Source: Catajapyx aquilonaris (lineage: Eukaryota). From it: a stretch of 20,000 bases of DNA. Position 1 is the stretch's first letter. Each line of letters begins with the position of its first letter. Shown here in pieces: positions 1,213 to 20,000 of the stretch. The notes under the pieces were generated by a model. The model was given only the letters and a program-made list of their open reading frames with translations. It did not search any database and was not told the DNA's origin. The DNA lies in assembly GCA_000934665.2 (NCBI GenBank), contig JYFJ02001448.1:60058-80057 (forward strand), written 5' to 3'. The translations under genes and the position numbers were made by a program.

Positions 1213-4138
1213 AATGTAGAAGAAAAGAAAAAATTCATGCATATTTCTACGGGGCAGGAAAAGGCTCTATAGCTGAAAACTGACTTACATGCTCACATAG
1301 TTGTACGTACGGTACAATAGCATTAGATTACAAGATGCTTAATCCAACTTCGGCGAAAGTGTGATCGATCGTTCCGCATTTTATGCCATCAGATCCATGT
1401 TATCCTACTTCTATATGAAACAGCTGCTATGAAAATGTGACTATTCTGACGCATGATCGACAGACACATTTTTCCCAAACTTTTTTCACAGTCCATTGCT
1501 TTAATGCTGCCATACGGATTCGGTTCACTCGAAAGAATATCATAAAGGCCTATCTATGCTTGTTACGGACAATTTTAGAATTTAGCTCCGTCAGAAAAGG
1601 GGATGTGCAGAAATTAATGCACCACTACTGTTATTAAAGAGCATCTGGTGTTACACAATCATCACATAATGAAAATTCCGGGTGCCATAATTTTAAATTA
1701 AAATAAATACTACGTACAGTATTTGCCTGTAGCTCCAGGTATTCTTTACTCCAAAAACATGAAAATGAGTTGTCTGACAGGATTCCGCGAAGGCATCAAT
1801 ATATAGCATTATAACCAGTACATCCACGTATTTCCTTACTTCGCTGAGCAATATTTAATTGTATCTAGAATGAAAACAGGTATTAAAAAATTGGGAACGT
1901 AAAAGAATTATTTTATTATGTAGACGATGTTCGAAAAGCTGTTTTTGTTACAGATTTGAGACCAACTTTTTATACTCTGTTTTGATGACAGATACAACTG
2001 TATACATCGTAAACACTACTGTACGGGTACGTTAGAATAAGGGAGCACAAGAGTACAATGCCCATACGATGGACGTCTTGTGCGCCTGTACTTTGGAAGA
2101 ACCATAGAACCTGCAGGCAACGCTCTAGTGCCTATGACATAGCTAGAAATCACTTCTGCAAACACTCCACTCATCTTTCTTTTTTTTTTACGTCATTATA
2201 TATTTTTTGATCGATCACATTCTAGAGTCTTGGGAAAATTGCGTGTAACTTCCACTCCACACTCTGATCCCTCAAACTGTACTTAGGTTACCCTTGCTTT
2301 CTCCGCAAGGTAAGAAAGGAAACGCACAGTTATATTTTCATAAGTATACCACTGTGGTGATTTGTCATGCTCTAAAAGTAAAAATCCCCAATTCTGTGGG
2401 GCACGTTGAGGACACACATCTCTCCGAATGTGGGTTGAACCGTACAAGTTTGGCTCTGCCGACTATTGGCAAAAGCAGCAATTTGCATATGAGAAATAAG
2501 TACACTGACAGTGAGTACAATCAAAGAAACAAATGCCGTTTAAGAAACATACGTACATGTACAAATTCCAACTTATCGTTTTGGAAGACAATTCCGTGTG
2601 TGCATAGTTGCAGTTTAGATCATGCACAGTCAGCCGCAGATTTGTCTCTTACAGTGTCACTTATGTAACTGCACAAGTGTATGAAGGATTCAGAGTCAAA
2701 AAATATCTGCCAAAAATCATGGAAAAGGTTTCCCACATCATGCATAAGTTTTCAGGCTGATTGTAAGTCACTTACATTGGCTTCGATCAATGAAAATCAA
2801 CATTACAGTTCAGCAGGTTAAATTTTCTTCTATAACAGGAAAGTAGTACAGTTGGTCAAATTGGAGATAATTTTTGCCAAGGAAATCCTTCAAAATTAAT
2901 AAATTTTCATGCATTATTGTCGGTGGATAGTGCGTGAAAGACATGGTTCCAGCATTATTTCGTTGTCTTGATGAACCAATCGCTACCAATATTTCTCTGT
3001 ATCTGCAATACTGTTTCACAGGCATGTCCCGTTATTGTCACTCTTAATAACTATACATCTTCACAACACATGTCAACATGGCTTGAGTGCAATCAGACTG
3101 GCGAGTAGAGGTACAATCTGCAAAAGCTCAAATATCAGGCGTAAGCTAACAAATATGTTTTAAAAGCATGCAAGGTTTAGATTCACTAGTCAGATTCAAA
3201 GACCTACACCTAAAAATTCACACTACATGCACACTAATCAGTTATGCTGCGGAGTACGCCCAAATTGGCTTGTGCCCTTTGTGAGCAAAAATGGGTTGAA
3301 ATGTGGATCTATCATTGATATGACGTGAAAGTCTTTACTTCTCAAAGAAGTTGAAGGGGTCAGCAAAATGAAAGCAAATATTGATTTAAAAACTAGTTCA
3401 ATCATGTCAATATCCAGTCTAATTGCACTCCACTTCTGAAAACCAACAATAGACTCCGCATTTTTAACATCAGCCTCAGGTAATAACATCAACTTCTTAC
3501 CAAACAAACCAACTGAGGATAGACTAATATTATAAAAATCCAACGACAGACAATCACGTAATAATAATATTTCCACCAGTCAACAATGGTGAATGTGTTT
3601 TCTTACTGTACATGCTTTATGATTGTGCGTGTTAGTCCGTATCTGTCACGACCATTGTTGAAAAGGAGAGGAATCACATAATATGATACAACTTGCTGCA
3701 TACTGTAAAGTGTGATGCGTCCAACCTGTGCCTCCGGTGTCTGTCTGAAGGTGCCCTTCATAACCTTTGTTATTTTTTTGAGGGAGGAGCTTGGGTTTGA
3801 GCATGTCCAAGCAGCGAAAGAGGAAGGAATTCTTCTGTCCTACCACCTACCTACACGACTGAATACCTAGCGAAAACTGAGATCTACCACGAGAAAGCCT
3901 TCCCTCTTCGTTGCGCCTACACGTGACTCTAAGCAGCCCCAGTCGACGTCGTCAACGTGTGTACGCAGTTGGCAGATAAAAGAAAGAAGTGGACCCATAA
4001 AGTATAAGGACGCAACAGGACTGGTCTTTGTTTCCCACCACCTGGAGGCACTGGACCCAAGGACCGTCTGGTTCAACCCACATCCAAATATAGTGGGGGG
4101 CATGCGCACCTCACCCCCCAAAAGAGAGACATGGACTC

Positions 4139-4195
4139 TTAGACCGTGGTGACGCGGTCAATCTCAACGTGCTCCACAGAATTGGGCTCATGTCA
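4139..4195 (-). other. Putative stop-codon readthrough extension (UGA-C, then HEPNSVEHVEIDRVTTV-UAA) adding a class I PDZ-binding C-terminus
   Basis: Minus strand reads TGC TGA CAT GAG CCC AAT TCT GTG GAG CAC GTT GAG ATT GAC CGC GTC ACC ACG GTC TAA. 12 of 17 codons end in G/C and the peptide ends T-T-V. Confidence 0.55.
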
Positions 4196-4761
4196 GCAGT
4201 ACACCTCTGGGCTGCCCAGAAACTCCTCGTCAGTGGCTGAGCGTCGGACCCCTCTGCCGCCCCTCCTGCCGCCCCTGGCCAGGACCCCTGCCGAGACGGA
4301 GGAGGAGGACGAGGAGGAGGTCCCCACCAGAGGACTGGCTTTGCTTCTCCGTCGCATTTTCTGCTTGTGGCCCATCCAGGCGGCCACCACCGCAGCCACG
4401 GCCAGGAGCAGCAGCACGGCCGCAGCCCCAGTGTACACGTATGGCATGGGGTACCTCAGGAAGAAGAAGGTAGAGCACTGCTCGTGGGATTCGTCGTATG
4501 CCGATGGGCAGTGGGACCTGCCGTCGCACCACAGGGACGAGCTGATGCAGGCCTCCAGCTCTGGGCAGCGGTGGCTACAACGGGCTGGGGGCTCCCACTC
4601 GTCGTCCGATGGCATCTCTGGAGCCTCCAGGGTCGTCGGGGGGTACTCCTTTCTGTGGCGGTGCAGCCACCACGCCCGCATCTCCTGCTGCTCTATGGCC
4701 TCACCCACCTGCCCTTCCGCTTCTCGAAGGCTGTCCCAGTCGGTGCCTACTACTGACCAAT
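4193..4761 (-). CDS. Coding exon 10: LDLa-like repeat, transmembrane helix, cytoplasmic tail
   Basis: cttcag|(D)WSVV...CSHRCPELEACISSSLWCDGRSHCPSAYDESHEQC, TM VYTGAAAVLLLLAVAAVVAAWMG, basic stop-transfer HKQKMRRRSK, tail ending FLGSPEVYC-TGA. Confidence 0.9.
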
Positions 4762-7700
4762 CTGAAGAATGGAGAGGGACCATTTCAAGTTAAAAGCACT
4801 CGTTTATCGGCATTATTGCTGTTATTGAGTCACTTCGCCCCTCTGCATAAAGAGCTAGCTTTGTAGTACATTCACGTGACTTACCACGTGCCAACTCCAA
4901 CCAGCGTATTGTGTATGCTCCGGGCTCCTTAGCTACGAAGTCCACTATTACAGCTCTCTCTCGCAGATCCGGACGATGCAGAGGCGGAAATCCTCGACGG
5001 CCCATTTTTTCCACGGCAACTTTCCATCCCAGCGAGAACACTTCGACGTAGGACGGCGCTCGAGGGTCGGGACAAAACACGGAGAGCAGTTCCGTTTCAG
5101 GTCCACCAGAGTACACTGCCACCCTGTTTCGAGTTGGACAGGAGCGACTGGTGCTTCCTAAAAGTACATGAGAGATGAGACGTTATATTATGGGATCGAG
5201 CTGTTGCCTTAGAAACCTGAATCACTGTGCTGGACACCGTACCTCCGGGTGTGATGGGATATCCTCTAGCAGACAAGTATATGTATCTGGCTGGTCTCGG
5301 TAAAACTAGCCAGGGTTGGCTCTCGCAGTGAACTTCCTCAGGAGACCGACTGGGCCTGCGGAGCCGGAGTTCCCCGCTAGATCCGGACATCCTCTGATTC
5401 CGTCGACACGGAGGTGACGGCAAAAATTCATAGGCTCCTTCCACTCTGAAAGTAGAGCCGTCGTCGGCAGGGGTCATACCCAAGAGGTCCCAGGTCAGCT
5501 CCACCACTGGCGCGGTGGATGCAAAGCTGAGTGGTGCCGCTGAAGAGTTGCAAAAGCACTCTCTTGGTACCCTGGTGTCGTTCCAAGGCAGCTCCCACAC
5601 CCTCAGGCGGGACACGAGCTGGGCCTCTGTCGGCGTGCATCGATGCCTGCTGAGGTGAGGGTCCCACTCGTTGACGCAGGGTTGCTCTCCAAGGCGAATC
5701 ACAGTTAAGGCTAGCTTCACCCTCTCCGCGGGCAAGGCTTCAAAGCGGAAAACGCAGGTCAAGTTGACCCTTCCTCCTCTGCCGAACAGAAACACGTTGG
5801 TTGGCGACTGGAAATTCCCGCCATCCACTGCTTTTCCTTGGCTGCGGTACAGTCGAAAACACGACACATCTGCAAGACAAATGTCAGTAGAGCATGACCA
5901 CTTCGATAAAAAGTTGTACGTACTTTTCTGTGGTGGTACTTCAACCCCATCTTGCTGCCGGAGCTCCACAAATTCGTACAGGAATCTGAAGCTGAGAGGC
6001 CGGAGAGCTGTGCTCTCCCGCGTCCTTAGGGTAATGACCATGTCGGATCCACTCGAAATGAAGCTCTCGGAGGGCAACTGGCATGATCGAGGAAGGCCGT
6101 CTAAAAGAGCGTGGTCGCACGATCTTGGAGGCCCGTCTCTGCATATCTTGGTCAGCAACTTGGAGGCCGAGGAGGACGAATTACTGGCCTCTCGTCCGTC
6201 CCACACCTCCACCTGAGCTGCGCACTTTTCCTCCTCGGCCAGTCCTTCCACAGCCGACCATACGTGAAACTTGAGCGGAGCCAGCCATATCACCTGAAAA
6301 TAATACCGACGCTGGACTTGGCTGTATCGAATTTAATTGAGGGCACTCTCACCTGTTGCGGTAGTCCTCTGAGAGTGTACCTGCAAGAGGCGTTCTTGGG
6401 CAAGCTCTGAGGGGGGTTGAGCAGCACTCCCCTGCGACCTCCTTGCTTCGAAGACACCAAGAACTCGCATGTTGAGGCTGATTGTGAGGTGGTGGTAGCA
6501 GCGGAAGTGACTGTGGTGACCCCTGGAGAGGTGCTTACAGGTGGTGAGGAGCCCACCCCGGAGGAGGAAGGTGGCGACGACAGTGACGCCCTCTCCTCAT
6601 CCACCAGCTCTACCTCTACGTCCAACTGGAATCCTGATACCAAATGCGTTGGGGTAGGAGGCGGAAAAGTATCCACTGACGACGATACAAACTCCACCAA
6701 GATCTCGTTTCGGCTCGAGGTCACCGGCGGGATCACTCCAGAACCGCAGAAGCGAAGCAGGACAGGATCCCTTACCTGAATAATGGCATAAGTCGGGGAA
6801 ACTGAGTTACTTTCAGGGCATCGTCCCGTTGGAGACCATAAGTGTGATCAATTGGCCACCATGGCGACATTCGGAAAAGAGCAACATACCGTGTATCCGT
6901 CGTAAATGGTAACGTGATCCTTTCCGTCCGGACACTTGTCTCCCACTTTAATGGTGGACAAGAGTGGAGATCCGGTGGCAGTGGTTGAGGAAGAGGTAGC
7001 AGCCCCCGAAGCAACCGAGCCCCTTCCCGAGGGTGCTACTGTCGTCGCAGCGGTGTCTCCGTGGTTCTTTATATAGATCAAGTGCGCTTGTGCCTGCGAG
7101 ACTCGAATCAAAGCATGCAGCCCTGTCGGAACCAGATGTTGCCTGATGGCGTAGTAGCATGTAGTGTTGCGTGGGTACAGCCCAGGGAAATTCGGAGACT
7201 GCAATCGGCACCATCTGCAAGATAATGCCTTTCATGAAGCATTATTCTTCATTAATTTACGATATAATTATTGCTAGCGGAACCTGGAAATGTGCGCTTT
7301 TTATCTGGGTCGAGGACTTGTGGTTACCAAGCAACGAGAATAAATGGGTGCGTATTGGAATGCCTGTCACTTGGTCTGGTGACCCAGATGGTCACGTGAT
7401 CCAAACCAAGCATTCCTAATGGCTCCCGCCACGACTTGTTGCCTGGCACAGGCTGATATAAATCAGGATTGCTGCACTAACACGCCAAGTAACAGGCCTC
7501 CAACTCTATTTGGCATACAGGATGGCACCCAACTTCCCAGTTTAAAAGTTAGGTAACGCGGAGAAACCTCCAGGAATCACATTTCACTGCTCGAAAAAAA
7601 CACTCCATAACTTCTTCACAAACGATTCTCTTGAACTGGAGGCTTGTGTATACTGCACTGTACCACCACACATTATTCATCGCATTTGGCATAAATAAAA

Positions 7701-10700
7701 GCAATGCGCACAATCATGCGAGGTTGACGCATAATCAACACACCTATGACGGCAGTTGTCAAATATGAGGCTGCAGTATGTTCCGGGCAGGAGCGTCCCT
7801 CTGAAGTAAGGCCTGTCAGGACGGCCATACCGCACGAGGGCATCTCGATGGTTGAGAAATTTGTAGGCCAATCGATACTCAAAGTTGTATCCAGTCTGTT
7901 GCACACCAAAAAGACAAAAGAAACCAGTTAACAAGCAAGATCTGAAGAAAAAGAATGGTTCTTTTTGCTGACCTGAACCGGAGGCAAGTGAAGAACATGC
8001 AGCGTGAGGGTAACTCCGTTTCCCTCGCTGAAATACACCGACCTACCCCAGGCCGATCCACACCAGATCCCACCAGCATCCGGTCGATCCACTTCTGCAA
8101 TATGCACATATCCATCCGGGCAGCTCGGAGGCGGCCCCGGAGACATCCGCCCCACCGCGAAGCCCTCAAACGTCACCTGCATCGGAAAGGACGCTTATTC
8201 ATGCACACCCTATTTGCATGGACCCCAGGCTTAACGTAACGTATTCCAAAAAGTACCTGGACAATGTCTCCAAACTCGTTCCCTGCCGCCTGAAAAGTGA
8301 TGCGGCACACAAACGGGAGTCGATCGTCTCTGGGGCGATGTAACTCCAAGAGGTAGGTCCGCTCCGTTTCTCCATAATAGGTCCGGTTGCAACCTGCACC
8401 AGAATGAAGTCATCGGTATTCATCTCACACACCACACTCTACTTCCACACCCAGCTTGTTAGAAGAAGACCGGGTTGAAACTACTCCTAGGTAATTCAAG
8501 CCTTTGGTGGAATTTTCGTCCGCAAAAAATTTTGTCCGGACGAAAATTCGACCCCTTTTTTGTTGTTGAGGTCTTTAAGACGGCTGTGTTATGATCAATA
8601 AATCGATGCTATTACCCTAAGGCGGGTGTTGTTGGAAGAACTGAGAGCAACCTGCCAAAATTTTGCTGAATAGACGAGTGTTATGAAAGCGAGGGCAGAT
8701 CGCGTTCATCCAGACGAGTATGGGAGAAAAGGGTGGAATATCCGTCGGGTGGGTGGATTGGATAGGGCATCAGAATAGGACGGGTGGTGCACGGGGGCAA
8801 AACAGAAGCCTGGGGGGCTTGCGGCTGACGTGAGTGACAAATTACGTCCCTTTCACGCAGGTTTGCAGTCCATTCAGCTCGAGGTGATTGGCAAAATGGA
8901 ACCAGCTCCCATCACTGTTTGTTTTCCCCTCTTTTACCAATCAAGCCAATCATCCATACTGCGGGAGCCACTTCCTTTCTACCACCCACCATTGTGCGAC
9001 TGTTTTGCCATAACGAGACAAAATCTATTTGTGCAATCCACTTTTGTTCATTCGTTAGCCTCTTCCTGCCCATTCGGAATATCATTTCAACCAGTGGAAA
9101 TCCTAGACACTAAATGAAAAAAAAATCTGGTTGGAGAACTAAGGCAGAATCGTTTTGGAGAAGCGCACTCTATTCTAAGGCTGTCATCCTGAATTCAGGC
9201 GATAAGAAACTCCGGAGTGGCTGGAAGCTTCAATTATTCGTTGCGAGGAAAAGCAAGGCGCCCTCGTCCCCCCTTGGAAAGCGCTGCATGCTGCTAGAAA
9301 AGCCTAGAGAAAGAACGTGTAGAGGTTTAGCATGCGGTTTGCACTCTGCTTCCTGCTTGATATGCCGCCTGAGATTCGTCCCGAGAAGCAATTTGTCTAC
9401 TCCCTTTCTCGGTTTTTGTGTTTCCGCTGAAAAATCTTTCCCAGGAGACCTCGATGGTGAAAAATATCTTCATTCGCTTCGGACTCGGGTTAAGTACCGG
9501 GATGTTCCCCACAGTGTCTTTTCTTGGGCTGATGGACTGCCTTCTTGTCCTTGGCCTCTCAAAGCGGTTTTAATTAAAAAGAGATTCAACTTCCTTGAGC
9601 TGTATGTAAATATTTGTTGGCAGCCTTTGTGCGTTTGACGTTGGTTGCACGGCTGCAGAAGCCCCCGAGGGCGTATACACCAACCGGCAGGGTATCCAGA
9701 ATCCGGTTTCCATGAGAAACTTATGAGTTTCCATGCCAAATTTGCATTCCAAACTGCATTCTATTTGGGACTGGCGTCCCAGAAGGAATATATACATGCG
9801 CTACTAAAGCTACCAGTCGTGTCGCGTTTCATGTGCCGGTGAGTTGCATAATATTTAGTTAATTTCTTTCAAATAGGAATCGTCTCTTTGAAGTTGGAGT
9901 CTGTGTAGGGGCATATAGGTTGCAGCCTTTGGAGTTTCTAGTTTGAGGAGAAGAATAACTAGATGATATGGATACTCCTTTCAAAATGTTGCTCTTGGAA
10001 GTAGGCCTACCGACTTTAACTGAGCTTAGCATAGCTTTACACTTCGTGTAACATATTCTATTTGAGGTGCGGTACACTGTGAAGCTTTCTGGGATGTAGA
10101 GTATCAGTACTTTCTTGTTATAATGTTTCAAAGGTGAGCAGTGCACTGTTTAATTTTGCAAAGCTACCTGCAACGATTAGGTACTGGTTACTGCAATCAC
10201 TGAAGACTTGTAGTATAATCTAAATTCCCTCTAGGTACTGTACAGTACATGAGATATCTAAAAGTTAGCACAGACTGAGAAATATTACTGGAGGTGAATT
10301 AATATAAAACTAGTAAAATTCTCATCGCAACATTATGGTAAAAAGTATAAGCAGTCATAAAATGTCAGATGTGCACGTCACAGGTGAACTATAGTATTTT
10401 CTGTATATATTTTGTTAACAAGCAGGTACAACAAGTTTATTACGTCGCCATTATCAGTGTGCAGCCATTAGTTTTTGTCAAAATAACATTTGAACACTGA
10501 AAATACTGAAAAGTACTTTTCCCCAAATGCTTCCCCCATAATCAGCATTAGGCAGCCCCATGTCAACCTGCATGACAGAGCCCTACTATGTATGATGCAA
10601 AAACTATTATATTCAGCTTGCAACCTATGTTCCTCCTCGCTCGCGTTCCAAATTACTGCGTCCGCATATCCATTATTCAATACATCTGCAGGAGAGCCCC

Positions 10701-11305
10701 CATTTCAACATTCTATGCCAGGCCAAGTCAGGCAGTAAGCATTCTCTCCACAATCTTGCTGCGTCAAAATTTGTTGGCGTTGTGCAAAGCACAAGCAAGG
10801 GTTTCAAGCGTGGTAATGATTTCCCAGCAGGTTAGGCATCACACAATCCGCAGCTTTAAAAATGGAAGGTCGCTCATGCAAGTTTGAGGTGCAGGCTCTG
10901 ATGACGTATGGATATGTCACAGTTCCAGCACCTGGGGCCTGGGAAGACAGGACTGACGAGAATCGCTCAATTGTCACTGATAACACCGCACCCGCCGCAT
11001 AATATATTTTCAAACGAGTCAGAAAGAGACTTTTCCACAGGTCATATCAGTCTGAACTAGAGTAATTCTGGTTTCATAATAAGTAAGTGTCGTGTGCGAC
11101 ATGACTCACGAGAGCAGTGTCTGGGCTCGTCTGATGCATCGCCGCAGTGATCCACGCCATCGCAGAACCGGTCCCAGGACAGGCAGCGGTTGTTGTTGCA
11201 GAGGAACTCGGAGCGCTTGCAGCCGGAAGCTTCAACCTGTGCCCAGGGCAGGGTCCGGGGCAGGGCCAGCACCACAGCCAGCAGCCAGTGGCCCCAACCG
11301 ACCAT
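4193..11305 (-). CDS. Spliced gene, 10 coding exons, 1091 aa type I transmembrane LDLa + multi-CUB domain protein (arthropod CUB/LDLa receptor-like family). join complement(11110-11305, 8257-8393, 7973-8176, 7744-7895, 6890-7214, 6353-6775, 5924-6293, 5243-5869, 4885-5157, 4193-4761)
   Basis: All nine introns are GT-AG with matching phases (1,0,0,2,0,0,1,1,1). Exon lengths sum to 3276 nt, one open frame from ATG 11305 to TGA 4193-4195. The translation gives signal peptide, LDLa, CUB motifs (LQSPNFPGLYPRNTTCYY; DHVTIYDG...RFCG...EILVEF), a second LDLa-like repeat and a hydrophobic TM helix. Confidence 0.9.
4885..5157 (-). CDS. Coding exon 9: end of CUB-like domain 5
   Basis: ttttag|(G)STSRSCPTRNRVAVYSGG...VFCP...VEVFSLGW...AVIVDFVAKEPGAYTIRWLELAR, then G|gtaagt. 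273 nt. Confidence 0.88.
5243..5869 (-). CDS. Coding exon 8: CUB-like domain 4 and start of domain 5
   Basis: ttgcag|(N)VSCFRLYRS...GNFQSPTNVFLFGRGGRVNLTCVFRFEA...VEGAYEF...CESQPWLV...PG, then G|gtacgg. This is the only nearby phase-1 donor compatible with the next exon. 627 nt. Confidence 0.85.
5924..6293 (-). CDS. Coding exon 7: CUB-like domain 3
   Basis: tttcag|VIWLAPLKF...CAAQVEVWDG...KICRD...ESFISSGSDMVITL...FRFLYEFVE...PQK, then A|gtacgt. 370 nt. Confidence 0.85.
6353..6775 (-). CDS. Coding exon 6: C-terminal half of CUB2, Ser/Thr/Pro linker, start of CUB3
   Basis: attcag|VRDPVLLRFCGSGVIPPVTSSRNEILVEFVSS...GFQLDVEV...CEFLVSS...LPKNASCRYTLRGLPQQ|gtgaga. 423 nt, phase 0/0. Confidence 0.9.
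6890..7214 (-). CDS. Coding exon 5: N-terminal half of CUB domain 2 with Ser/Thr/Ala-rich insert
   Basis: ttgcag|(R)WCRLQSPNFPGLYPRNTTCYYAIRQ...KCPDGKDHVTIYDGYT|gtatgt. 325 nt. Confidence 0.92.
7744..7895 (-). CDS. Coding exon 4: end of CUB1 and linker
   Basis: caacag|TGYNFEYRLAYKFL...RGTLLPGTYCSLIFDNCRH, then AG|gtgtgt. 152 nt, phase 2 out. Confidence 0.88.
7973..8176 (-). CDS. Coding exon 3: CUB-like domain 1 core
   Basis: VTFEGFAVG...SCPDGYVHIAE...GIWCGS...VYFSEGNGVTLTL. Acceptor atgcag|, donor CAG|gtcagc, 204 nt. Confidence 0.9.
8257..8393 (-). CDS. Coding exon 2: start of CUB-like domain 1 (not in the ORF track)
   Basis: gtgcag|GT TGC AAC... reads (R)CNRTYYGETERTYLLELHRPRDDRLPFVCRITFQAAGNEFGDIVQ, then |gtactt. 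137 nt, phase 1 in and phase 0 out. Confidence 0.88.
11110..11305 (-). CDS. Coding exon 1: signal peptide + LDLa repeat
   Basis: MVGWGHWLLAVVLALPRTLPWAQVEA followed by CKRSEFLCNNNRCLSWDRFCDGVDHCGDASDEPRHC (6 Cys, DxSDE). Donor C|gtgagt at 11109. An upstream acceptor ttgcag| at 11322-11323 leaves 16 nt before the ATG, so a 5' exon probably lies further upstream. Confidence 0.92.
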
Positions 11306-14300
11306 TGCCGACCCCCGACACCTGCAAATGCGTCAAATATAATTGGGTCATTCATTCGCTGTCCTAGTTACGCGACTCCTGAAATGTTTGCTTAGAAATG
11401 GGACCAGGGGTTATTAATGGGCCTTCAACTGTGACTGGCAGGGTTCTTCGTCACCTTGGATGCACAAGAGTTTCTCATTTGCGTGGAAGGTGGGGGGAAA
11501 TGTGAAAATTGCTTTTAGACACCTGTTACATACGATATTCTCTCTGTAAAAAATCTCATGCCTATCTCTGACGTTATCGGGCGTATGTCAATAGACAGCG
11601 CAGCGTATAAAATATTTACAGGTTGGCATTTATAGCCCAGGCTTCTCTAAAATGAAAAGGGGAGAATTTAAACTATTCAGCTATGTCAAACCTGCCTGTG
11701 GGTCGACAGTGTGCGAAATAAATAATTCAGCCGATCGGATAGCAGCACAGGTTGAATTCCCGCACCGGTGACTCATAACCTCCTTACCAAATTCGCGGGT
11801 ATTTTCGACCCAAACTCTCACCAACAGCGTTTAGGGTTGCCCTTGGCATATGTTTAGAAGCCATCCTCACAGAATCCTCAATGAACATTGACCGAGCCCA
11901 GCGTTTATGTATAATGACGTCAAAGAGTTTCTCACCTTATGCATATCTGAAAAGTTGCCTAAGCACGGCCTTGGACCCCTGGCGTAATAAATTTAATAAA
12001 GCTCCGGATCGTGCAAGAAGATTACGTCAGTACGTTATTAACCGCCATCCTCCCCTTTTCATACAGTAGCACAAAGACTGTGCGCACCACCAGAGCTGAT
12101 TAGTTTCAGCATGCTATCAAATAGTTTTGAATCCATTCTCATCCTTGAGAGTGGCGATAGAAGAGAAACTGAAGTGGAATGTTGCCTATACAGTTTCGTG
12201 AGTGCCGGTAGAGTGTCATGAGCGTAGAGTTCCGTGTCCGCAAATCTGTCTGTCGGCTATTTCCGCAAGAGAAACCGCGTGAAAGCAAACACGCAGCAGG
12301 CAGCCATGGCAAGGGCGTTGGGGGTGGCCTTCATTGCCTTCTATATAATACTCGATATAGCACAGTGTGTACCCGACCTGGTGGAAACAAAACTGGCCGC
12401 ATAATCCGAGCTTCTGTAACAGTGGAGTGGGAGGGAGAATGGGCCGATTTATGAAGAGGCTGATAGTTAGTGGAGGAGTCGGGTTGATAAGGTTAACGAG
12501 GGTCTGTGGAGGTATAAAGACCATCCAGGCCACACCCTATTCAAAGGCGAGCTTTTGGGGAGGACCACGCCAGCCAGATCCCGCAAAACCGATTAGCCAA
12601 TAGCAGTCAGCAACGATTCCTTTCATGCCCTTTGACCGTCCGCGGGTGTATATACAGGCTCATCTCACTAGGCTAATGGAAACCTATTGCGCGACGTGTT
12701 CTGCAAAGCTAGCTTTTAAGGCAGCGGGGCGCCCGGAATTCAGTCATGTTGATCCGGAGCAGAATTTCATTTCATTAGATAAATTTCTGCCCGGACGACT
12801 ACGGTTTCCCACTATCCGGAATCTACTGTACCGCACTGTCTGCGGTAAGAGATTACTGCTTCGTTAGAACAAACCTGGATGTGACCTGTGTGGCATGTGT
12901 CCTGTAATTATGGTGAAGGATATGAATGGAGAGGCTTGTAATGAGCACGTCACCGAGGATTTATGACTAATTGGAAGCATTTTAAGTGGCAAATAATGTT
13001 GGGAAATGAAACCAAGTAGTGGTATTACAATGCACACTGTTTTTACTCGCAACATATAGTACAAGTTTTAGGAAGAGCACATAAACTTGTGTCAAAATGA
13101 ATTTACAATGAAGCGCTCTAGAGCTAATTCAGGAATTGACAAGGTGATGACTCTTTCCCTGGTGTCTTGTTCAGGTAGAAAAGGCAGATGATCTCGATTC
13201 CTATCGTGTGAACAGCTGTGTGCTAGACGAAAAGCTCCGTGGCGCAATATTTTTTTATAGTATGATATGGACTCCTTAAAGGGTCTCTGAAGACTCGACA
13301 CGAACATTTCAAGAGAAGCAGTTCTCAAAATGTGTCCATTCTCTATACCGTCTACCCTCATTAGAAAAGTGATGTACAGTTATAGCCAGAATAATGCTTC
13401 CGGCATAAACCTAGCTTCAAAAGAGGTATCTGTCCTCTCCCTCCCCCCCCCCTCTATCCCTCATTCCCGTCTGGTTATTGGCACCGCAGCAGGAAAATAA
13501 TTAGCAGTCTGGGAGACAGATGAGCTGCCAATGACCTTGTCAGTCAGGGCCGGGAATAATTAAAAAATACGAGTTTGGAAATTAGTAACACCTGTTCCGC
13601 TATTTTGCCACTATTAAACATCAGATGGGACACGCTTTCATTCCTGCTGTAGAATTTCGCAAATGTTACTAGATCCATACGTGATCCGTTCAGATTTTAT
13701 ACTTTCATTCTTACGACAATGTACAAATTTTCTGACATATAATAAAGAATATGTCAAAAGTGGAGCGGCATGATGCAGTAAGTTTTTTGAATGCATGAAT
13801 GCTACACCAGAAAGAGAACCTGATCCAGGAGGTACCTCCTGTAGATTTCAGAGGATCTGGTTGCACAATGTGACACTGGAAGGAAATTGTAGAGCGACGT
13901 TCTCAGGGGGAGTAAAAATCCTCCCAGGACTTTTTCAGAGCTCTGCCTATATATACTGTCGGTCGATTGTATAGTATGCTCCGTCGCATATTTTTGTTCC
14001 TCTTGAGAATACGTCCTCAGAGATCCAACCATACATGCCTGATAGAAAGTTTCTATAGTATTGTTGAGGCATCTGCCAGTTTTGGTTAAGTCCTAACAGT
14101 ATTGTTGTAGTACAGAATAACTAACATAACATAATTCAGCAATGCACAATAGGTCCCACATTGTCAGTTTGAATTCCCTAGCTGTAGGTATGCCACACAC
14201 CATTTCAATTGCCTTCTCTTCATACCCCACGCTCACTTGCATTGCATCATATGTCAGCAAAGGAATCCAGACTCCACGATAAAATGAGACACAACTGTAG

Positions 14301-17264
14301 CCGTGGTGAGCACAGTAGGTTGAGAGGTTAGCAACAATGAAATAAAGGCTCTCCACGGGGAAGCGGCGGGTACGTTGATGGAATTTATTCACTCCGGTCC
14401 TCACCAGAGTAAAGTCGGTCAAAGGCCCGGGCTATAGAGATTGTATATAATAGGGTAGGCGACTGGGGGAGGAGAAGGTGGGGAGGAAGAGGAGGCAAGA
14501 TCAAAGGGATAGAGTTTGGAGCTTACGTCGCTGGCGGTGTGAATGTAACCAAGCGAGCAGGCAGGCAGGCAGCAAGACAAATCGTCCAGGGTAGACGATG
14601 ACGCTTGGTTGCATCTCTACACAACTTTTGGGGAGAAGAATTTATTGGGGGGTGTGGCTCGGAGGTCGGAGGGCTTTGGGATGATGGTGGTGGGTGGGTG
14701 GTTCAAGGGGTTGGAGAGGCAGTAGGAGGGAAAGTGGGGGTGTTCGCTGCAGGGTAGCCACTCCAAAATTTTCTTGCAGCTAAGCCCTTTCCACTGCACT
14801 CAGCCGGATTCCCAGGCAAGTTGGGAAATTATTTCCTGGGCGAACAGTGCTGCTGCCTGTTGGAAACTGCCGACGCGTTGCTGGAATAATATTATTATTC
14901 TTCCTGGGTGTACGGTCGGCTTTTCACTGGAGGCTCCCCCCCTGTTGGGACAAACTCTCTACCTCTGTTAACCTCGTTACATTGCAGCAGGTCTCCCTGT
15001 GACGCATCAAAGGACCTCCCAAAAAAATTTGAGTTGTAAACCTCTGCACAATGGTGTTGGGGTCAGTGAAATGGATGAGTATTCATGCAAACAAGCGCGC
15101 TTTTCAATCCGAAAATTGCCACCGATGATTAGTTATGCGGCTCCAATTATGGAATCGATCGCCAACTATTTTTAATCAGTATTATATTCATTCCAAATTA
15201 AAATTCCATTTCAAGCCATGCACGTGAAATTCATTAGCCTGGATTGTATTGGGGTAATATGTTGATTCCCACATTTGGCAGTAAGTTAAAACATAAACTA
15301 TGAGAGAATCCCTACTCAGTATTATTTGGGTTCATCCCTGCCTCATAGTGGAATTTTTGTTCGCTTTTCATTTTGTCCATATTCACCGCATGTGTTTCCC
15401 AATAACAAGTGGTTATCACATGCATGATACCCGGCTCTTTTGATACTCGTTCATTCCGTTGGTGGCAGTCCAGTTTGTGGCCGCTGACAGTTTGTGGGCC
15501 TCTGGGGGACTGTGAGGGACATGGGGGCGGGAGATGGGTATATATAGGGATGAGGAGGGAGGATAGTTGTGGGATTTGCCAGCAAAAGAGCACGCAAAAT
15601 GGCGTAACTCAGAGCTCGTACACCCACACACGCGCATGAACACAACACATGCTCTTTGTCTGGCGCTCATTCACCCCCAAGCCAGGACTAGAACAGAAGC
15701 ATTCCTTTCGCCTTTTGTCTCATGTTGGCTGCATCGGAAATTGGATGCTGCTGGAAACTCCCTCAACCAACCCATCCTCCACCCACCCACCCAACTTCCA
15801 CCCCTCCCAGCACACCCAACCTACCATCGCTTGTTTCATTTCGGGCCTTCTGGACCGACTACGATTCGCAGTGCTAATGCTTCACTTATGAATTCACTCG
15901 GCCGTGTTGCCACATTCGACCGGCTCGCTCCCGTTAATTAATGTTGTATGAATTCCGTTACAAGTCACTCACTCGTGAACAAATCGGGACTCAATTACAA
16001 ATTTCACGTCATCCTGAAAATGTCTTTGATGCAGGGCCTCTGTTTTTGGTGGCAAAGTCAGCAGAGCCGTCACAAGCCAGAGAAATTCTATTACGAAAAT
16101 GAATTAGGCTAATCTGCTAGGCGCTGACGCGAGAATTCAGAAACAATGTCAGCCCATAATCAGATGTTGGAGAGTTGAATTTTTCAAAATGGCATATGTG
16201 ATTGTTCAAGTCCCAAGTGGTCCTACCGTTGTTGTCACAATAACAAAGGCAACAAATGTCATTTGAAAATGGTAAAATATTGCACTGTATGCATGTGCCA
16301 TTGGAGGTAGAGATACTCTGTGTGTAACTTCATAATGCTATTTAATTTGTATTTAATAAACAACAATCTAAAAATTCGATTGTTAGACGGAATATAGCAC
16401 GCCCCTTTAAACTTGGGGCCCTTGAAATGTATCACATTTTGAACAAAAAATTTCCCGTACAGTATATGTTTCGAGAGATACCCGTATTCAGTTTCAGAGC
16501 CCAGAGTGAACATGAGGCTACACAAAGTGAAGTGGGATAGATTCAAGTTGTTGAGTTGGAAACTTTCCATGACAAAAAAGGCGAAAAGAGAGTAAAACCC
16601 GCAGGAAAACCGCAGAAATGTATAGGCATTGCTGAAGTCGTCGTTTTTGGTTAGTTTGCCTCCATATAGGAAAAGGAGAAAAAAGGAAGCTTATTTTTAG
16701 CCCTCTCCGAGGTGGGATTTGCTGCCTGCCATTGATTCTTAAAGAGGTGCATTGTGGGTAAAAGGGCGCATTCGGTTCGATAAAACCGGGTTTTGTGGGG
16801 GCCAAGTGCCAAGGAGGGCAGTGAATCTTGCCCACAGGAGCCAAGTCCCGACAGGTTAATTTATTCCTCCATTCCACCCTACCCGCCCACACATCTCCTG
16901 GCTCCAGAATAATTATTTCTTGCACAAGTTTCTTGACGCAGCTTCACAGAAAACTTGCTTTTGAGGCACTTATAAACGCAGGCTTCACCCAAGAAAACTT
17001 TTCCCATCACAAGTGTCTTTTTAATTACCCTCCAATTAATGTACCATAATCTGTGTCAAGCAAGGCAAGACGATAATTAATATATCATAACTTAAATAAG
17101 TTTCAATATTCTGGTACGGAGGTGCTACCTACTCGACACAGAGTGTTCATCCTAACTGTGAAGAGCTTCCCATGTGCCTTCTCTGTTCGTCGGAAAGCCT
17201 ATATGGCAGGATGACTTTCCTTACAGGGTGTACTGTGTGTACAGTACTGTCTACTGGACGGTAC

Positions 17265-17286
17265 ATTATTATTATTATTATTATTA

Positions 17287-17344
<58 letters not shown>

Positions 17345-17346
17345 TA
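17265..17346. repeat. (ATT)n microsatellite, about 27 units with two interruptions
   Basis: Directly visible; it produces the poly-I/Y/N ORFs in the track. Confidence 0.97.
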
Positions 17347-17724
17347 CAAAATTTTGAACAGTTAAACTTACATTGCTGGTGACACAAGTAAAAGCAGACT
17401 GATTAAACTGTGTCCCCATTCTCTACCCAGGGTGAGTGAACCCTACCACAAAACGTCCCATCTGCGACTGTACCGCACCCGGGCCAAGCAGAGGGAAAGC
17501 GGAGCTGGAGTTGACGTAAACCCCCGGTTTCTGAGATAGATTGAGTGGCAGTTTGAATTCGCCAATTTTCCTAACCATTCTCGCCACTGCCTGTGGGGGC
17601 CTCTCTTGGTAGTACAGAGCACACAACTACAGTGTACTTTGCCCATCACGTGAAGCCCAAATGTGGTTTTATTGGTTCTCCAGCCCTTGGAGCTTATTTT
17701 TGCCGCCGGCTGGTTTGGATTGGA

Positions 17725-17893
17725 GGGGGACCAACGGGGGTGGGGGTATAGGGTGGGTAGGGGGAGCGAATGGTGTTGGTAGATACTACACTATGCAATC
17801 TGAGCCCTCATCCAGTGGGGATTCCATCCGAGAGCTGTGCATTGATCTGCAAGCCAGGGGAGTCGGGGGTTTGGGTGGGGGGTGATGGGAGGG
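17725..17893 (+). other. Two G-quadruplex-forming-type G-run clusters (17725-17764 and 17857-17893)
   Basis: GGGGG-accaac-GGGGG-t-GGGGG-tata-GGG-t-GGG-ta-GGGGG and GGGG-agtc-GGGGG-ttt-GGG-t-GGGGGG-tgat-GGG-a-GGG both match the G3+N1-7 pattern. Confidence 0.5.
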
Positions 17894-19746
17894 CAGGAAA
17901 AATTCTTCTGCGTGGCCAAAATGCGGGTCCTGCCAAGTGGGTTTAATTGGGCTGAATTTTTCCCGACGTTTGTATAAATCAGGATGGAAGGTTGTAAGGG
18001 GCTTTTGAGCCTCTGTCGGTGAATTTTATTGCTCGCAAGGCTCCACTAGAGTCAGCTAAAAGCCGCAAGCCGGTATACGTGACATGCATTTTTGAGGCCA
18101 CACGTATCCTGCAGTTTCCTCTGCAAAAGAACTAGGTCGCGAGATGTCACAGGCTCCATTTTTATGAAGAAAATCATCGTCGCTGATCAATGTAGGGGGA
18201 AATAATCAATTCCTGCACCGGGCCTACCCTTTAATTCGACAGTTGCCAGACTCCCCTGCGGTTTACCCCAGTGATGACTTTCAGCGTTTGGGGCAACTTG
18301 TTTGATTGCCTCCTCACGTCCCATAATTCACTCCTTGCGGCAAGTTGTTTGAGGCGAATCTGTGAGCGAGAATCTTCATGATCCTATAGTGATATATAAC
18401 CCCCAATCCGTCCATCCAGCAAGGAGGTTCATACAAACTGAAATCTTGCAAAGTTTCCTTGTTTCCAATGGGCCCTAGTGTTGGAAGATGGCTGCCGGCA
18501 GTATTATACATAGAGCGGTATAGTCCCTACGAGGCCTAATCTACTGGAACGGGGCAAGTTGCACCAACCAGTCAGGATACTAATTAGCTTAGGGCCGTTT
18601 GGCTCACGTCCCCAGAGGCTCTTTGTTCTTGCTCGGGTTCAATTGTCGCTCTCCAAGGCCTTTTGGTGGTAAAACCAAGCATCACGTGCTTTGCCATCCA
18701 GCTCCGTTTTCTCTCGCTGCAATCACCGACCATTTTGCATTACAAGTCAAGATTACCGCGCACACGGAGAAGTGACCTTATAGAATGGGAGGCTCTTGCT
18801 GCTTGGTAGCTGGTTGGTTGGCCGAAATCAAAGGACGACCGTAGCGCCACTTGCTGCGGCGAACAGCGGAAAGAAATCAATTATTAGAAAAAGGAGGCTG
18901 ACAACGGACATCATTCTATCTCCTGGGAGATACCGTTCAAGTACTCGAGCTAGCCTGCTTTTTATTGCCGGCATTTCCATTGGATTCTGTTCGGCCGTTG
19001 GCGGCAGCAGAGTGCGCTGGGACTGGGACAAGGCATAAAAACAGCGGCGGGGAGCGAGGGAGTCCCAGATGAAATTGGTTGGGAACGCGGTCCCTGCGGA
19101 GCCTAACACCTGACAGTGCAAAAATTATCCCATTATGGAAAATGCTTTTAATCCATATATACCGGTTGAATTAGGATATGGCCCACCTAGAAAAGTCACG
19201 GAATGATGAATGCGACTTTCCGCTAAGTACTGTACGGCACGAACTTTTTACGGGCTGGTGCTCCAAGCATACCAATACCATAATTGTGGCTCTCTTTATA
19301 GCAGGTGAAAACGGTTACGTACCGTACGCAATTATACTGCCGGAAATATATTGTGCAGTACGTCTAACGGAATAATTTGTTTTGCCATTATGGTAACGGT
19401 GTACACTGTAGTTGACATGAAACCTGGTTTGTAAAGCAACAGTGATACCCTGTCGCAATGCTCGGGTGATTTTCAGTATTCCGGAACTTTCACAATTTTG
19501 GTACGCTGCAAGATCAAACAGTTACACATTTTAAATGTTGCATAAAGTGCATGAAAAAAGGTAATTTCATAGAGTGGTTTAAACTCTGCATTTAATCACA
19601 GACCCACGAGTATGGAGTATTATACAGCAAGTTATGCAGCCTATTTAAAAACCCTCTCTTCTCTGTAAGCTGAAATATGTGTAATTTTGCAAAATACTAC
19701 TGTTAAATCGCTGGTAACCCCATCTTGGGAATATGCCGCGAGTGTA

Positions 19747-19764
19747 ATGAATGAATGAATGAAT
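19747..19764. repeat. Short (AATG)4 tandem repeat
   Basis: aatgaatgaatgaatgaa. Confidence 0.75.
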
Positions 19765-19902
19765 TAAAGTTTCATAAACACTTCTAATGATATTTACAGC
19801 AGTGCTCAAATTCTGACACCAGAGATAAACAATATTATTTTATCAGCAGCATGGTCAAATCAAGGTGAATATTGCTTCTCCATAATTATACCTGTACATT
19901 GT

Positions 19903-19929
19903 ACAACAACAACAACAACAACAACAACA
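19903..19929. repeat. (ACA)9 microsatellite
   Basis: acaacaacaacaacaacaacaacaaca. Confidence 0.9.
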
Positions 19930-20000
19930 TCACGACATTTCCCTATGAGGGGTAGTCAGCGATGAAGGGAGATGCAAGCTAACCCAACATATGAACTAAT

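Follow-up and report, generated by a model that had tools for sequence, protein, structure and literature searches.

The stretch of DNA analysed here, 20,000 nucleotides (nt) of contig JYFJ02001448.1 of Catajapyx aquilonaris and referred to below as the window, carries on its minus strand what its domains identify as the 3' end of a gene for a single-pass CUB/LDLa/DUF7805 receptor. The coding sequence closes with ...GSPEVYC, the canonical C-terminus ...P-E-V-Y-C that ends the short isoform lying at 4196..4207 with the TGC of its cysteine at 4198-4196, and is followed by a TGA stop codon (4193..4195) and a C (4192), which gives the context TGA-C. Beyond this stop, which is proposed to be leaky, the same frame stays open for the 17 codons of a putative readthrough extension, HEPNSVEHVEIDRVTTV (4142..4192), which ends in T-T-V, the pattern of a class I type PDZ ligand. 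A second stop, TAA, at 4139..4141 would end the extended isoform, and the junction peptide expected from readthrough is EVYC-x-HEPNSVEHVEIDR. These elements were read directly from the minus strand and agree exactly with the first-pass annotation, which had described EVYC-UGA-C followed by 17 in-frame codons and then UAA.

The gene was mapped from stop-to-stop frames, splice sites and Pfam searches of exon translations. Its upstream part (4885..11305, minus strand) begins with an ATG at 11305 and comprises an exon for a signal peptide and an LDLa module, CUB-like exons and two DUF7805 exons, the bounds of these exons being approximate with the exception of the last donor. Pfam matches to the exon translations were clear for Ldl_recept_a (1.1e-07) and DUF7805 (1.2e-13 and 1.1e-20), while matches to CUB were weak and lay under the Pfam cut-off on single exons. 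The last intron (4762..4884, minus strand) is a phase 1 GT..AG intron of 123 nt with the donor G/GTAAGT and the acceptor AG at 4763-4762, and was borne out by a contig of sequencing run X5 that joins 4885 to 4761 with 123 nt skipped. Run X5 was taken as RNA-like because this spliced joint is present, and the gene is expressed and spliced as modelled. The last coding exon (4193..4761, minus strand), defined by its open reading frame (ORF) and the acceptor, holds a membrane-proximal LDLa-like module (4475-4579, a weak Pfam Ldl_recept_a match), a transmembrane segment at about 4370-4435 (Kyte-Doolittle 19-residue maximum of 2.47 at 4373-4429), a tail of ~60 residues and the stop. The predicted order of domains in the window is thus signal peptide, LDLa, CUB-like modules, DUF7805, LDLa and transmembrane segment. 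The tail is considered to be cytoplasmic because it is placed after the transmembrane segment, which is the only strongly hydrophobic segment following the N-terminal signal peptide, and it is from this that the topology was deduced. Contigs of X5 were also found downstream of the gene, at 3000-3204, 3358-3584 and 3627-3861, which suggests either a 3' untranslated region (UTR) of more than 1 kb or another downstream transcript.

What can be learned from the window by itself is limited. The earlier observation that 12 of the 17 extension codons end in G or C was correct as a count, but the coding argument drawn from it gives no discrimination; the first codon position is likewise G or C in 12/17, the binomial probability of at least 12/17 is 0.07-0.26 at a background GC content of 0.50-0.60, and the local downstream GC content is 0.53-0.56. 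When 20000 3' flanks were simulated with the local dinucleotide make-up, 51.5% were open for at least 17 codons, 3.4% ended in [ST]-x-[VIL] and 2.0% combined that end with an open frame of at least 17 codons. The possibility that the TGA is itself an error was addressed with contigs of three DNA-type runs (X1, X2 and X4), all of which carry the TGA and the extension unchanged. The runs are not independent, because they derive from one sample that is possibly the assembly's own source, and their agreement therefore argues only against a consensus error. The nearest differences between the window and the runs are 4109 C>T (X1, X2 and X4) and 4064 C>T (X4), with a further one, 5559 C>T, in X1, X2 and X4; these single-base differences are probably allelic variants and none falls in the stop or the extension.

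Relatives of the protein were sought in several ways. A word-index search with the large exon recovered full-length arthropod relatives, the best of which was from Anabrus simplex with 39% identity and an end of ...GGKEVIC. The same type of search with the read-through last exon gave no match among longer proteins, low-complexity words probably crowding relatives out. When a maximum-likelihood tree was built from 32 rows and 346 columns of the large exon, the window fell in a 9-row clade, with support of 96/98, together with proteins of Anabrus, Halyomorpha, Anopheles, Chironomus and Phlebotomus and the CG32432-group proteins of Drosophila, the dipteran members being named CG32432 (Drosophila) and AGAP006444 (Anopheles gambiae) by their cluster names. 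The window branch is long (1.03) and its placement inside the clade is not settled by the tree. Judged from its membership of this clade, the window gene is orthologous to Drosophila CG32432 and Anopheles AGAP006444.

A search by HMMER of 1.84 billion representatives, using the last exon translated with the TGA as X, gave 173 matches at E <= 0.001. Among the best 150 of the 173, at least 12 representatives read ...K[ED]VIC-W-[HQ]SDNSVRY[VE]E[VI]DRVTTV-W and show complete divergence afterwards. The W in these representatives was taken to be TGA read as tryptophan by the gene caller, because other proteins in their 90% clusters (P0158 and P0172) terminate in ...EVIC, and this was later borne out by the DNA loci described below. 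The short-form end is K-E-V-I-C in Anabrus, Halyomorpha, mosquitoes and other flies, and in mosquitoes, calyptrate flies and tephritids the annotated end is ...[DE]K[ED]VIC.

Metagenome contigs scanned with the tail alignment gave 166 pattern matches, 26 of which encode a relative, at 25 loci, and the site of interest is spanned in 12 of the 25. The first stop is TGA-C in all 12 of these loci and in the window (13/13 sequences, 9 of them distinct). The extension is in frame in 12/12, with 17 codons in 11 loci and 20 in the remaining one (L017), and the sole length change within it is therefore one of whole codons (+3). DRVTTV followed by a stop is found in the window and in all 12 loci, the second stop of the loci being TGA in 11 and TAA in L017. 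Among the distinct insect-like 17-codon loci (L001-L013) the second stop is TGA-C in six of seven and TGA-T in L010, the window and L017 having TAA; a double readthrough is unlikely, because nothing is conserved beyond the second stop.

The manner in which the extension varies is that of a protein. A codon test was made on eight distinct 17-codon sequences, L004, L005, L008 and L009 having been dropped as duplicates and L017 on account of its length. The extension had 5/5/14 variable sites at the first, second and third codon positions, compared with 17/16/17 for the 51 nt that follow the second stop and 14/14/16 for the 17 codons before the first stop, aligned ungapped. Pairwise ratios of nonsynonymous to synonymous differences (pN/pS) in the extension were 0.14-0.22 among the lineages other than the window and 0.31-0.53 against the window, and rose to 0.77-1.09 after the second stop. 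Nucleotide identity in the extension is 0.67-0.88 and amino-acid identity 11-15/17, compared with 3-8/17 for the 17 codons before the stop (again ungapped). The peptide is conserved from the codon directly following the TGA onwards, and conservation collapses past the second stop. No other part of the cytoplasmic tail is as well conserved as the extension, and the pattern of substitution in the extension shows it to be under purifying selection as protein. The first-pass annotation had proposed that orthologous 3' ends be tested for a shared UGA-C, a bias towards synonymous change and a second stop directly after T-x-V, and all three were found. Indels that shift the frame were absent, conservation of the peptide was strong, and in no relative does a sense codon stand in the place of the TGA.

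Similar extensions occur beyond the orthologue group. At DNA loci, five of five paralogue groups with an extension have TGA-C, 11-65 codons ending in ETTV and then a stop. In two of these groups the short form ends in KDSIC or KDSLC, with TGA-C followed by 11 codons ending ...IETTV and TGA in the first (L014/15) and by 20 codons ending ...FETTV and TAA in the second (L016). The others have a serine before the TGA-C, namely ...PPSS with 29 codons ending ...LETTV and TAA (L018), ...LAVS with 16 codons ending ...LETTV and TGA (L020-22), and ...AEAS with 65 codons ending ...LETTV and TGA (L023). L019, alone among the paralogues in having no extension, carries TGA-G and reaches its next stop after just three codons. 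At least eight further protein representatives, from other branches of the family, show a tail ending in C or S, then W, then a short stretch ending in ETTV and another W. Decapod proteins from Penaeus, Macrobrachium, Scylla and Portunus end in ...VDYVTTL or ...DFETTV as ordinary C-termini with no intervening stop; neither these TTV/TTL proteins nor the KDS[IL]C proteins belong to the clade of the window in the large-exon tree. Recurrence among paralogues, together with a constitutive TTV in some crustacean members, points to selection that favours the production of both forms. The short form also has a conserved end of its own, K-[ED]-V-I-C among orthologues and K-D-S-[ILF]-C among members of one paralogue group, which may be a motif itself, for example a PDZ ligand of a class other than I or a site of lipidation.

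A candidate conserved RNA hairpin (4149..4204, minus strand), predicted by RNAalifold from eight sequences, has the TGA within it and is formed by pairing between the V-[IY]-C-stop-C segment and the codons for (I/V)-D-R-V-T. Its cells are paired in 93.8% of cases, as against 88.8 +/- 1.0% in shuffled alignments (0/500 reach the observed value) and 20-40% when the partner is slid along. Compensatory changes occur in three hairpin pairs, a count matched by 22/500 shuffles, and 126 nt of the window folded alone were no more stable than shuffles (z = -0.46). The hairpin was derived from the same sequences on which it was tested, and these are few and related. A conserved hairpin around the stop is suggestive rather than established, and is in agreement with a structure flagged by RNAz for the Anopheles orthologue in a published catalogue.

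Explanations other than readthrough (ALTERNATIVES) were also weighed: editing, a purely non-coding role, splicing and selenocysteine. Adenosine-to-inosine (A-to-I) editing could turn the UGA into UGG (Trp) in part of the mRNAs, with the hairpin as a substrate of ADAR, and would fit the coding signature of the extension equally well; the A of the UGA lies in an A-U pair in 8/8 sequences of the conserved hairpin, and no RNA contig covers the site. Against this, a genomic TGG is found at the codon in no relative (TGA in 13/13), and the C that invariably follows the stop, in 13/13 sequences and 5/5 paralogue groups with an extension, is a readthrough context and not something that editing requires. 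The helix is also short and interrupted, and the A of the UGA has a 5' G neighbour, which ADAR disfavours. Editing is judged unlikely, and is the most probable of these alternatives.

Slightly less credible is the suggestion that the sequence after the stop is conserved for a non-coding function, as an RNA structure or a 3' UTR regulatory site, and that no extended protein is made. The overlap of the conserved hairpin with this region and the high nucleotide identity of the extension are what such a function would predict. It would not predict the concentration of variation at third codon positions and a pN/pS well below 1, the restriction of length change to whole codons in L017, or the fact that TTV is always followed by a stop. 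It also leaves unexplained why paralogues with quite different extensions, of 11-65 codons, should share only their ETTV end, and why TTV or TTL is an ordinary C-terminus in some decapods.

The TTV tail might also be reached without decoding the TGA, by alternative splicing from an upstream donor to an acceptor in or just before the extension, and there are indications that splicing does act on this part of the gene. A predicted protein of Schistocerca cancellata (P0122, XP_049770968.1) ends ...LSAG-YVEVDRVTTV, the transmembrane region being joined to the last 10 residues of the extension, and may be a genuine splice form or else an artefact of gene prediction by which the stop is avoided. Most Drosophila CG32432 models (P0208-P0277) splice at KE/V to an exon ending ...VVETKI or ...ETKA (T-x-I/A), and one isoform of D. 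mojavensis ends ...EVIC. The window itself carries GAG/GTGTAC and GTGGAG/CAC, the former (4204-4199) being a weak donor at the same place as the Drosophila KE/V splice, and a third tail may be made there by splicing. However, as the first-pass annotation had stated, the window offers a single GT..AG whose removal would take out the TGA and keep the frame, and this is a stretch of just 33 nt (4204-4172) with a weak donor. There is no conserved AG in the extension, and L013 has no AG in its first 50 nt. Peptide conservation from the first codon after the TGA is not explained by a splice into the middle of the extension, and the RNA-like run X5 shows only the expected 123-nt intron, its contigs not covering the stop. 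P0122 and the Drosophila KE/V splice show that splicing also acts on the tail, but neither accounts for the pattern, and as its cause splicing ranks a little below the non-coding explanation in probability.

Decoding of the UGA as selenocysteine (...EVYC-U-H...), with the second stop as the true terminator, is very improbable. Selenoproteins too are marked by an in-frame TGA that is conserved together with the coding sequence beyond it, and in the orthologue group a cysteine directly precedes the TGA. However, no selenocysteine insertion sequence (SECIS) element was matched by Rfam in positions 2000-5000 of the window (E <= 10) or in 16 related loci totalling 42.7 kb (at gathering score), and no other Rfam family was matched in these sequences either. 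Several paralogue groups have serine and not cysteine before the TGA, the second stop is also TGA in 11/12 loci, and the site lies in a disordered cytoplasmic tail and not in a redox fold. Several insect orders, moreover, lack the selenocysteine machinery. It is hardly credible at all that the frame is open by chance, as on the window alone would be expected about half the time for this length, or that the TGA is an error or polymorphism of a sense codon so that EVYC or VTTV is the sole C-terminus: the TGA is present in contigs of three runs and in 12/12 related loci, by which a chance frame or sequencing error is refuted, the extension is conserved, and annotated orthologues in named species stop at ...EVIC.

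Conserved readthrough is the explanation that we hold, with good confidence, to be the right one, the UGA being decoded by a minority of ribosomes to give a second isoform that ends in ...DRVTTV and would serve as a PDZ ligand. Under this scheme most ribosomes would stop at the UGA and produce the protein ending in ...EVYC, while a fraction would admit a near-cognate tRNA at the UGA, whose UGA-C context is a leaky one, and would continue through the next 17 codons as far as the UAA. Class I PDZ ligands have the consensus [S/T]-x-hydrophobic at a free C-terminus. The T-T-V that immediately precedes the stop in the window and in 12/12 loci agrees with this consensus, as does the ETTV of the paralogues. 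The cytoplasmic T-T-V-COOH would then act as a class I ligand, readthrough would set the share of the receptor able to dock to PDZ scaffolds, with the hairpin that surrounds the stop as a possible regulator of how often this happens. From the comparative evidence we infer that readthrough actually takes place in Catajapyx aquilonaris and that near-cognate decoding of the UGA gives a minor long isoform. Because the end of the short form is conserved as well, it could be speculated that the switch is one between two different C-terminal ligands and not simply on or off.

A number of observations weigh against this interpretation. Judged by the window alone, the extension has nothing statistically unusual about it and is barely beyond chance. 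The codon test represents only about four independent lineages, because 5/8 of the sequences are close relatives, and the comparisons with the flanks were ungapped. The residue at position -3 of the ligand is V in the orthologue group and E in the paralogues. The window forms only about 8/11 and 4/7 pairs of the two helices of the hairpin, which as modelled contains the stop codon itself, unlike the classical stimulators of readthrough that lie downstream. No RNA contig extends over the TGA in the window, the contigs of X5 leaving 4136-4419 uncovered. In those parts of the readthrough catalogues that were available, no evidence from ribosome profiling, peptides or reporters was found for the orthologue group, and CG32432 (FBgn0052432) is not listed as a readthrough gene in the available portions of Jungreis et al. 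2016, a small part of Dunn et al. 2013 and a 2026 Drosophila preprint on stop codon readthrough.

Readthrough of this kind is well known, and the mosquito orthologue has already been catalogued. AGAP006444-RA stands among the candidates for readthrough in Supplemental Data S1 (row 186) of Jungreis et al. (2016, Mol Biol Evol 33:3108), on the basis of PhyloCSF and 21 Anopheles genomes, with TGA-C, an interval of 18 codons, a structure found by RNAz and CG32432-RA as its orthologue. The resemblance to the present case is close, with the same orthologue clade and the same TGA-C, an 18-codon interval that fits 17 codons plus a stop, and an RNA structure flagged in the one and a hairpin in the other. 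The difference is that here the extension is seen far outside the mosquitoes, in several paralogue groups, and in the much more divergent window. In that row AGAP006444 was put in the class 'Comparison' and not counted as ancient, since the stop annotated in Drosophila is not its orthologue; the readthrough was thus not recognised as old, because the annotated dipteran tails differ, EVIC in one case and the KE/V splice of Drosophila in the other. Judged from the spread of the extension described here, the published Anopheles candidate is in fact old. The row has no column for a motif in the extension peptide, PDZ is absent from the main text as far as it was available, and CG34402, dsol-1, Neto and CG42255 are absent from the table in the part of the supplements consulted.

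In more general terms the case resembles the readthrough genes of insects and crustaceans (Jungreis et al. 2011, 2016; Dunn et al. 2013) in its leaky TGA-C, in a short second ORF under purifying selection and in being a neuronal or receptor-type gene. Jungreis et al. (2016) report that conservation is on average lower in readthrough regions than in first ORFs, whereas here no part of the tail is better conserved than the extension, which is also a trait common to paralogues. Readthrough extensions with predicted motifs of the PDZ class have been reported by Pancsa et al. (2016, Sci Rep 6:32142). Their motifs were predictions from single sequences; in the part available the CG32432 family is not mentioned, and conservation of extensions between orthologues is said to be lacking.

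The nearest parallels for the proposed product are found among auxiliary subunits of receptors. Vertebrate Neto1 and Neto2, which are CUB-CUB-LDLa-transmembrane auxiliary subunits of glutamate receptors, are likewise single-pass CUB/LDLa proteins with a tail that ends in a PDZ ligand. One study reports that Neto1 ends in TRV-COOH, a class I ligand, and that its binding to PSD-95 depends on TRV (PMC2652390), and in another NETO2 is said to have a class II motif and to bind GRIP (PMC9083331). These PDZ ligands differ in being constitutive, with no preceding stop, and the order and number of domains also differ, the comparison being one of shared domains. SOL-1 of C. elegans and dSol-1 of Drosophila, auxiliary subunits of AMPA-type receptors, are also type I CUB proteins, and that SOL-1 is the worm counterpart of CG32432 is the statement of a preprint which finds CG32432 enriched in hygrosensory neurons and proposes a role with ionotropic receptors in those cells (10.1101/2025.03.17.643622). 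The first-pass annotation had linked CUB proteins with ion-channel auxiliary functions, and for this gene the outside support for the link is that one statement on CG32432 and SOL-1. According to the same preprint CG32432 is anchored by glycosylphosphatidylinositol (GPI), whereas in the orthologues examined here a hydrophobic segment is succeeded by basic residues and a tail of 40-60 residues, a combination typical of a single-pass membrane protein. No report of readthrough of SOL-1 or dSol-1 was found in a search of the literature as far as it was accessible.

As to the remainder of the window, an ORF map of 11400-20000 revealed no obvious gene with an ORF of at least 110 amino acids. A long trinucleotide microsatellite on the minus strand, at about 17150-17420, would encode poly-Asn or poly-Ile, depending on the frame.

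No description was found of the depth to which the extension is conserved, of its recurrence in paralogues or of its relation to the constitutive TTV of crustaceans, in a search that covered the full-text literature and a portion of the supplements, and the family-wide pattern of PDZ tails is possibly new. It may be proposed, tentatively and with somewhat more doubt than belief, that readthrough to a PDZ ligand is an ancient, family-wide design of the arthropod SOL-1-like CUB/LDLa/DUF7805 receptors. An ancestral constitutive ...ETTV-COOH tail, still present in some decapods, would have been placed behind a leaky UGA-C in several paralogues, so that each would make a short form, ending in a hydrophobic residue and Cys and possibly a ligand of another class, together with a rarer form able to dock to scaffolds. 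The ratio of the two forms could be set by the conserved hairpin and might in this way be adjusted from one cell type to another.

Hundreds of insect genes show signs of readthrough, and the function of the added tails is mostly obscure; the biological significance of readthrough is described as poorly understood in the abstract of a 2026 preprint. The present case offers an unusually clear and testable candidate function, with a short extension carrying a textbook scaffold-binding end in the cytoplasmic tail of a receptor, and with the last six residues of the extension invariant across very distant relatives. It also bears on annotation, the longer isoform being absent from the protein set of this genome and of many others. 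The receptor family is one that the literature ties to auxiliary subunits of ionotropic receptors, and if the family-wide proposal is true readthrough would provide a translational rheostat for the anchoring of receptor auxiliary subunits.

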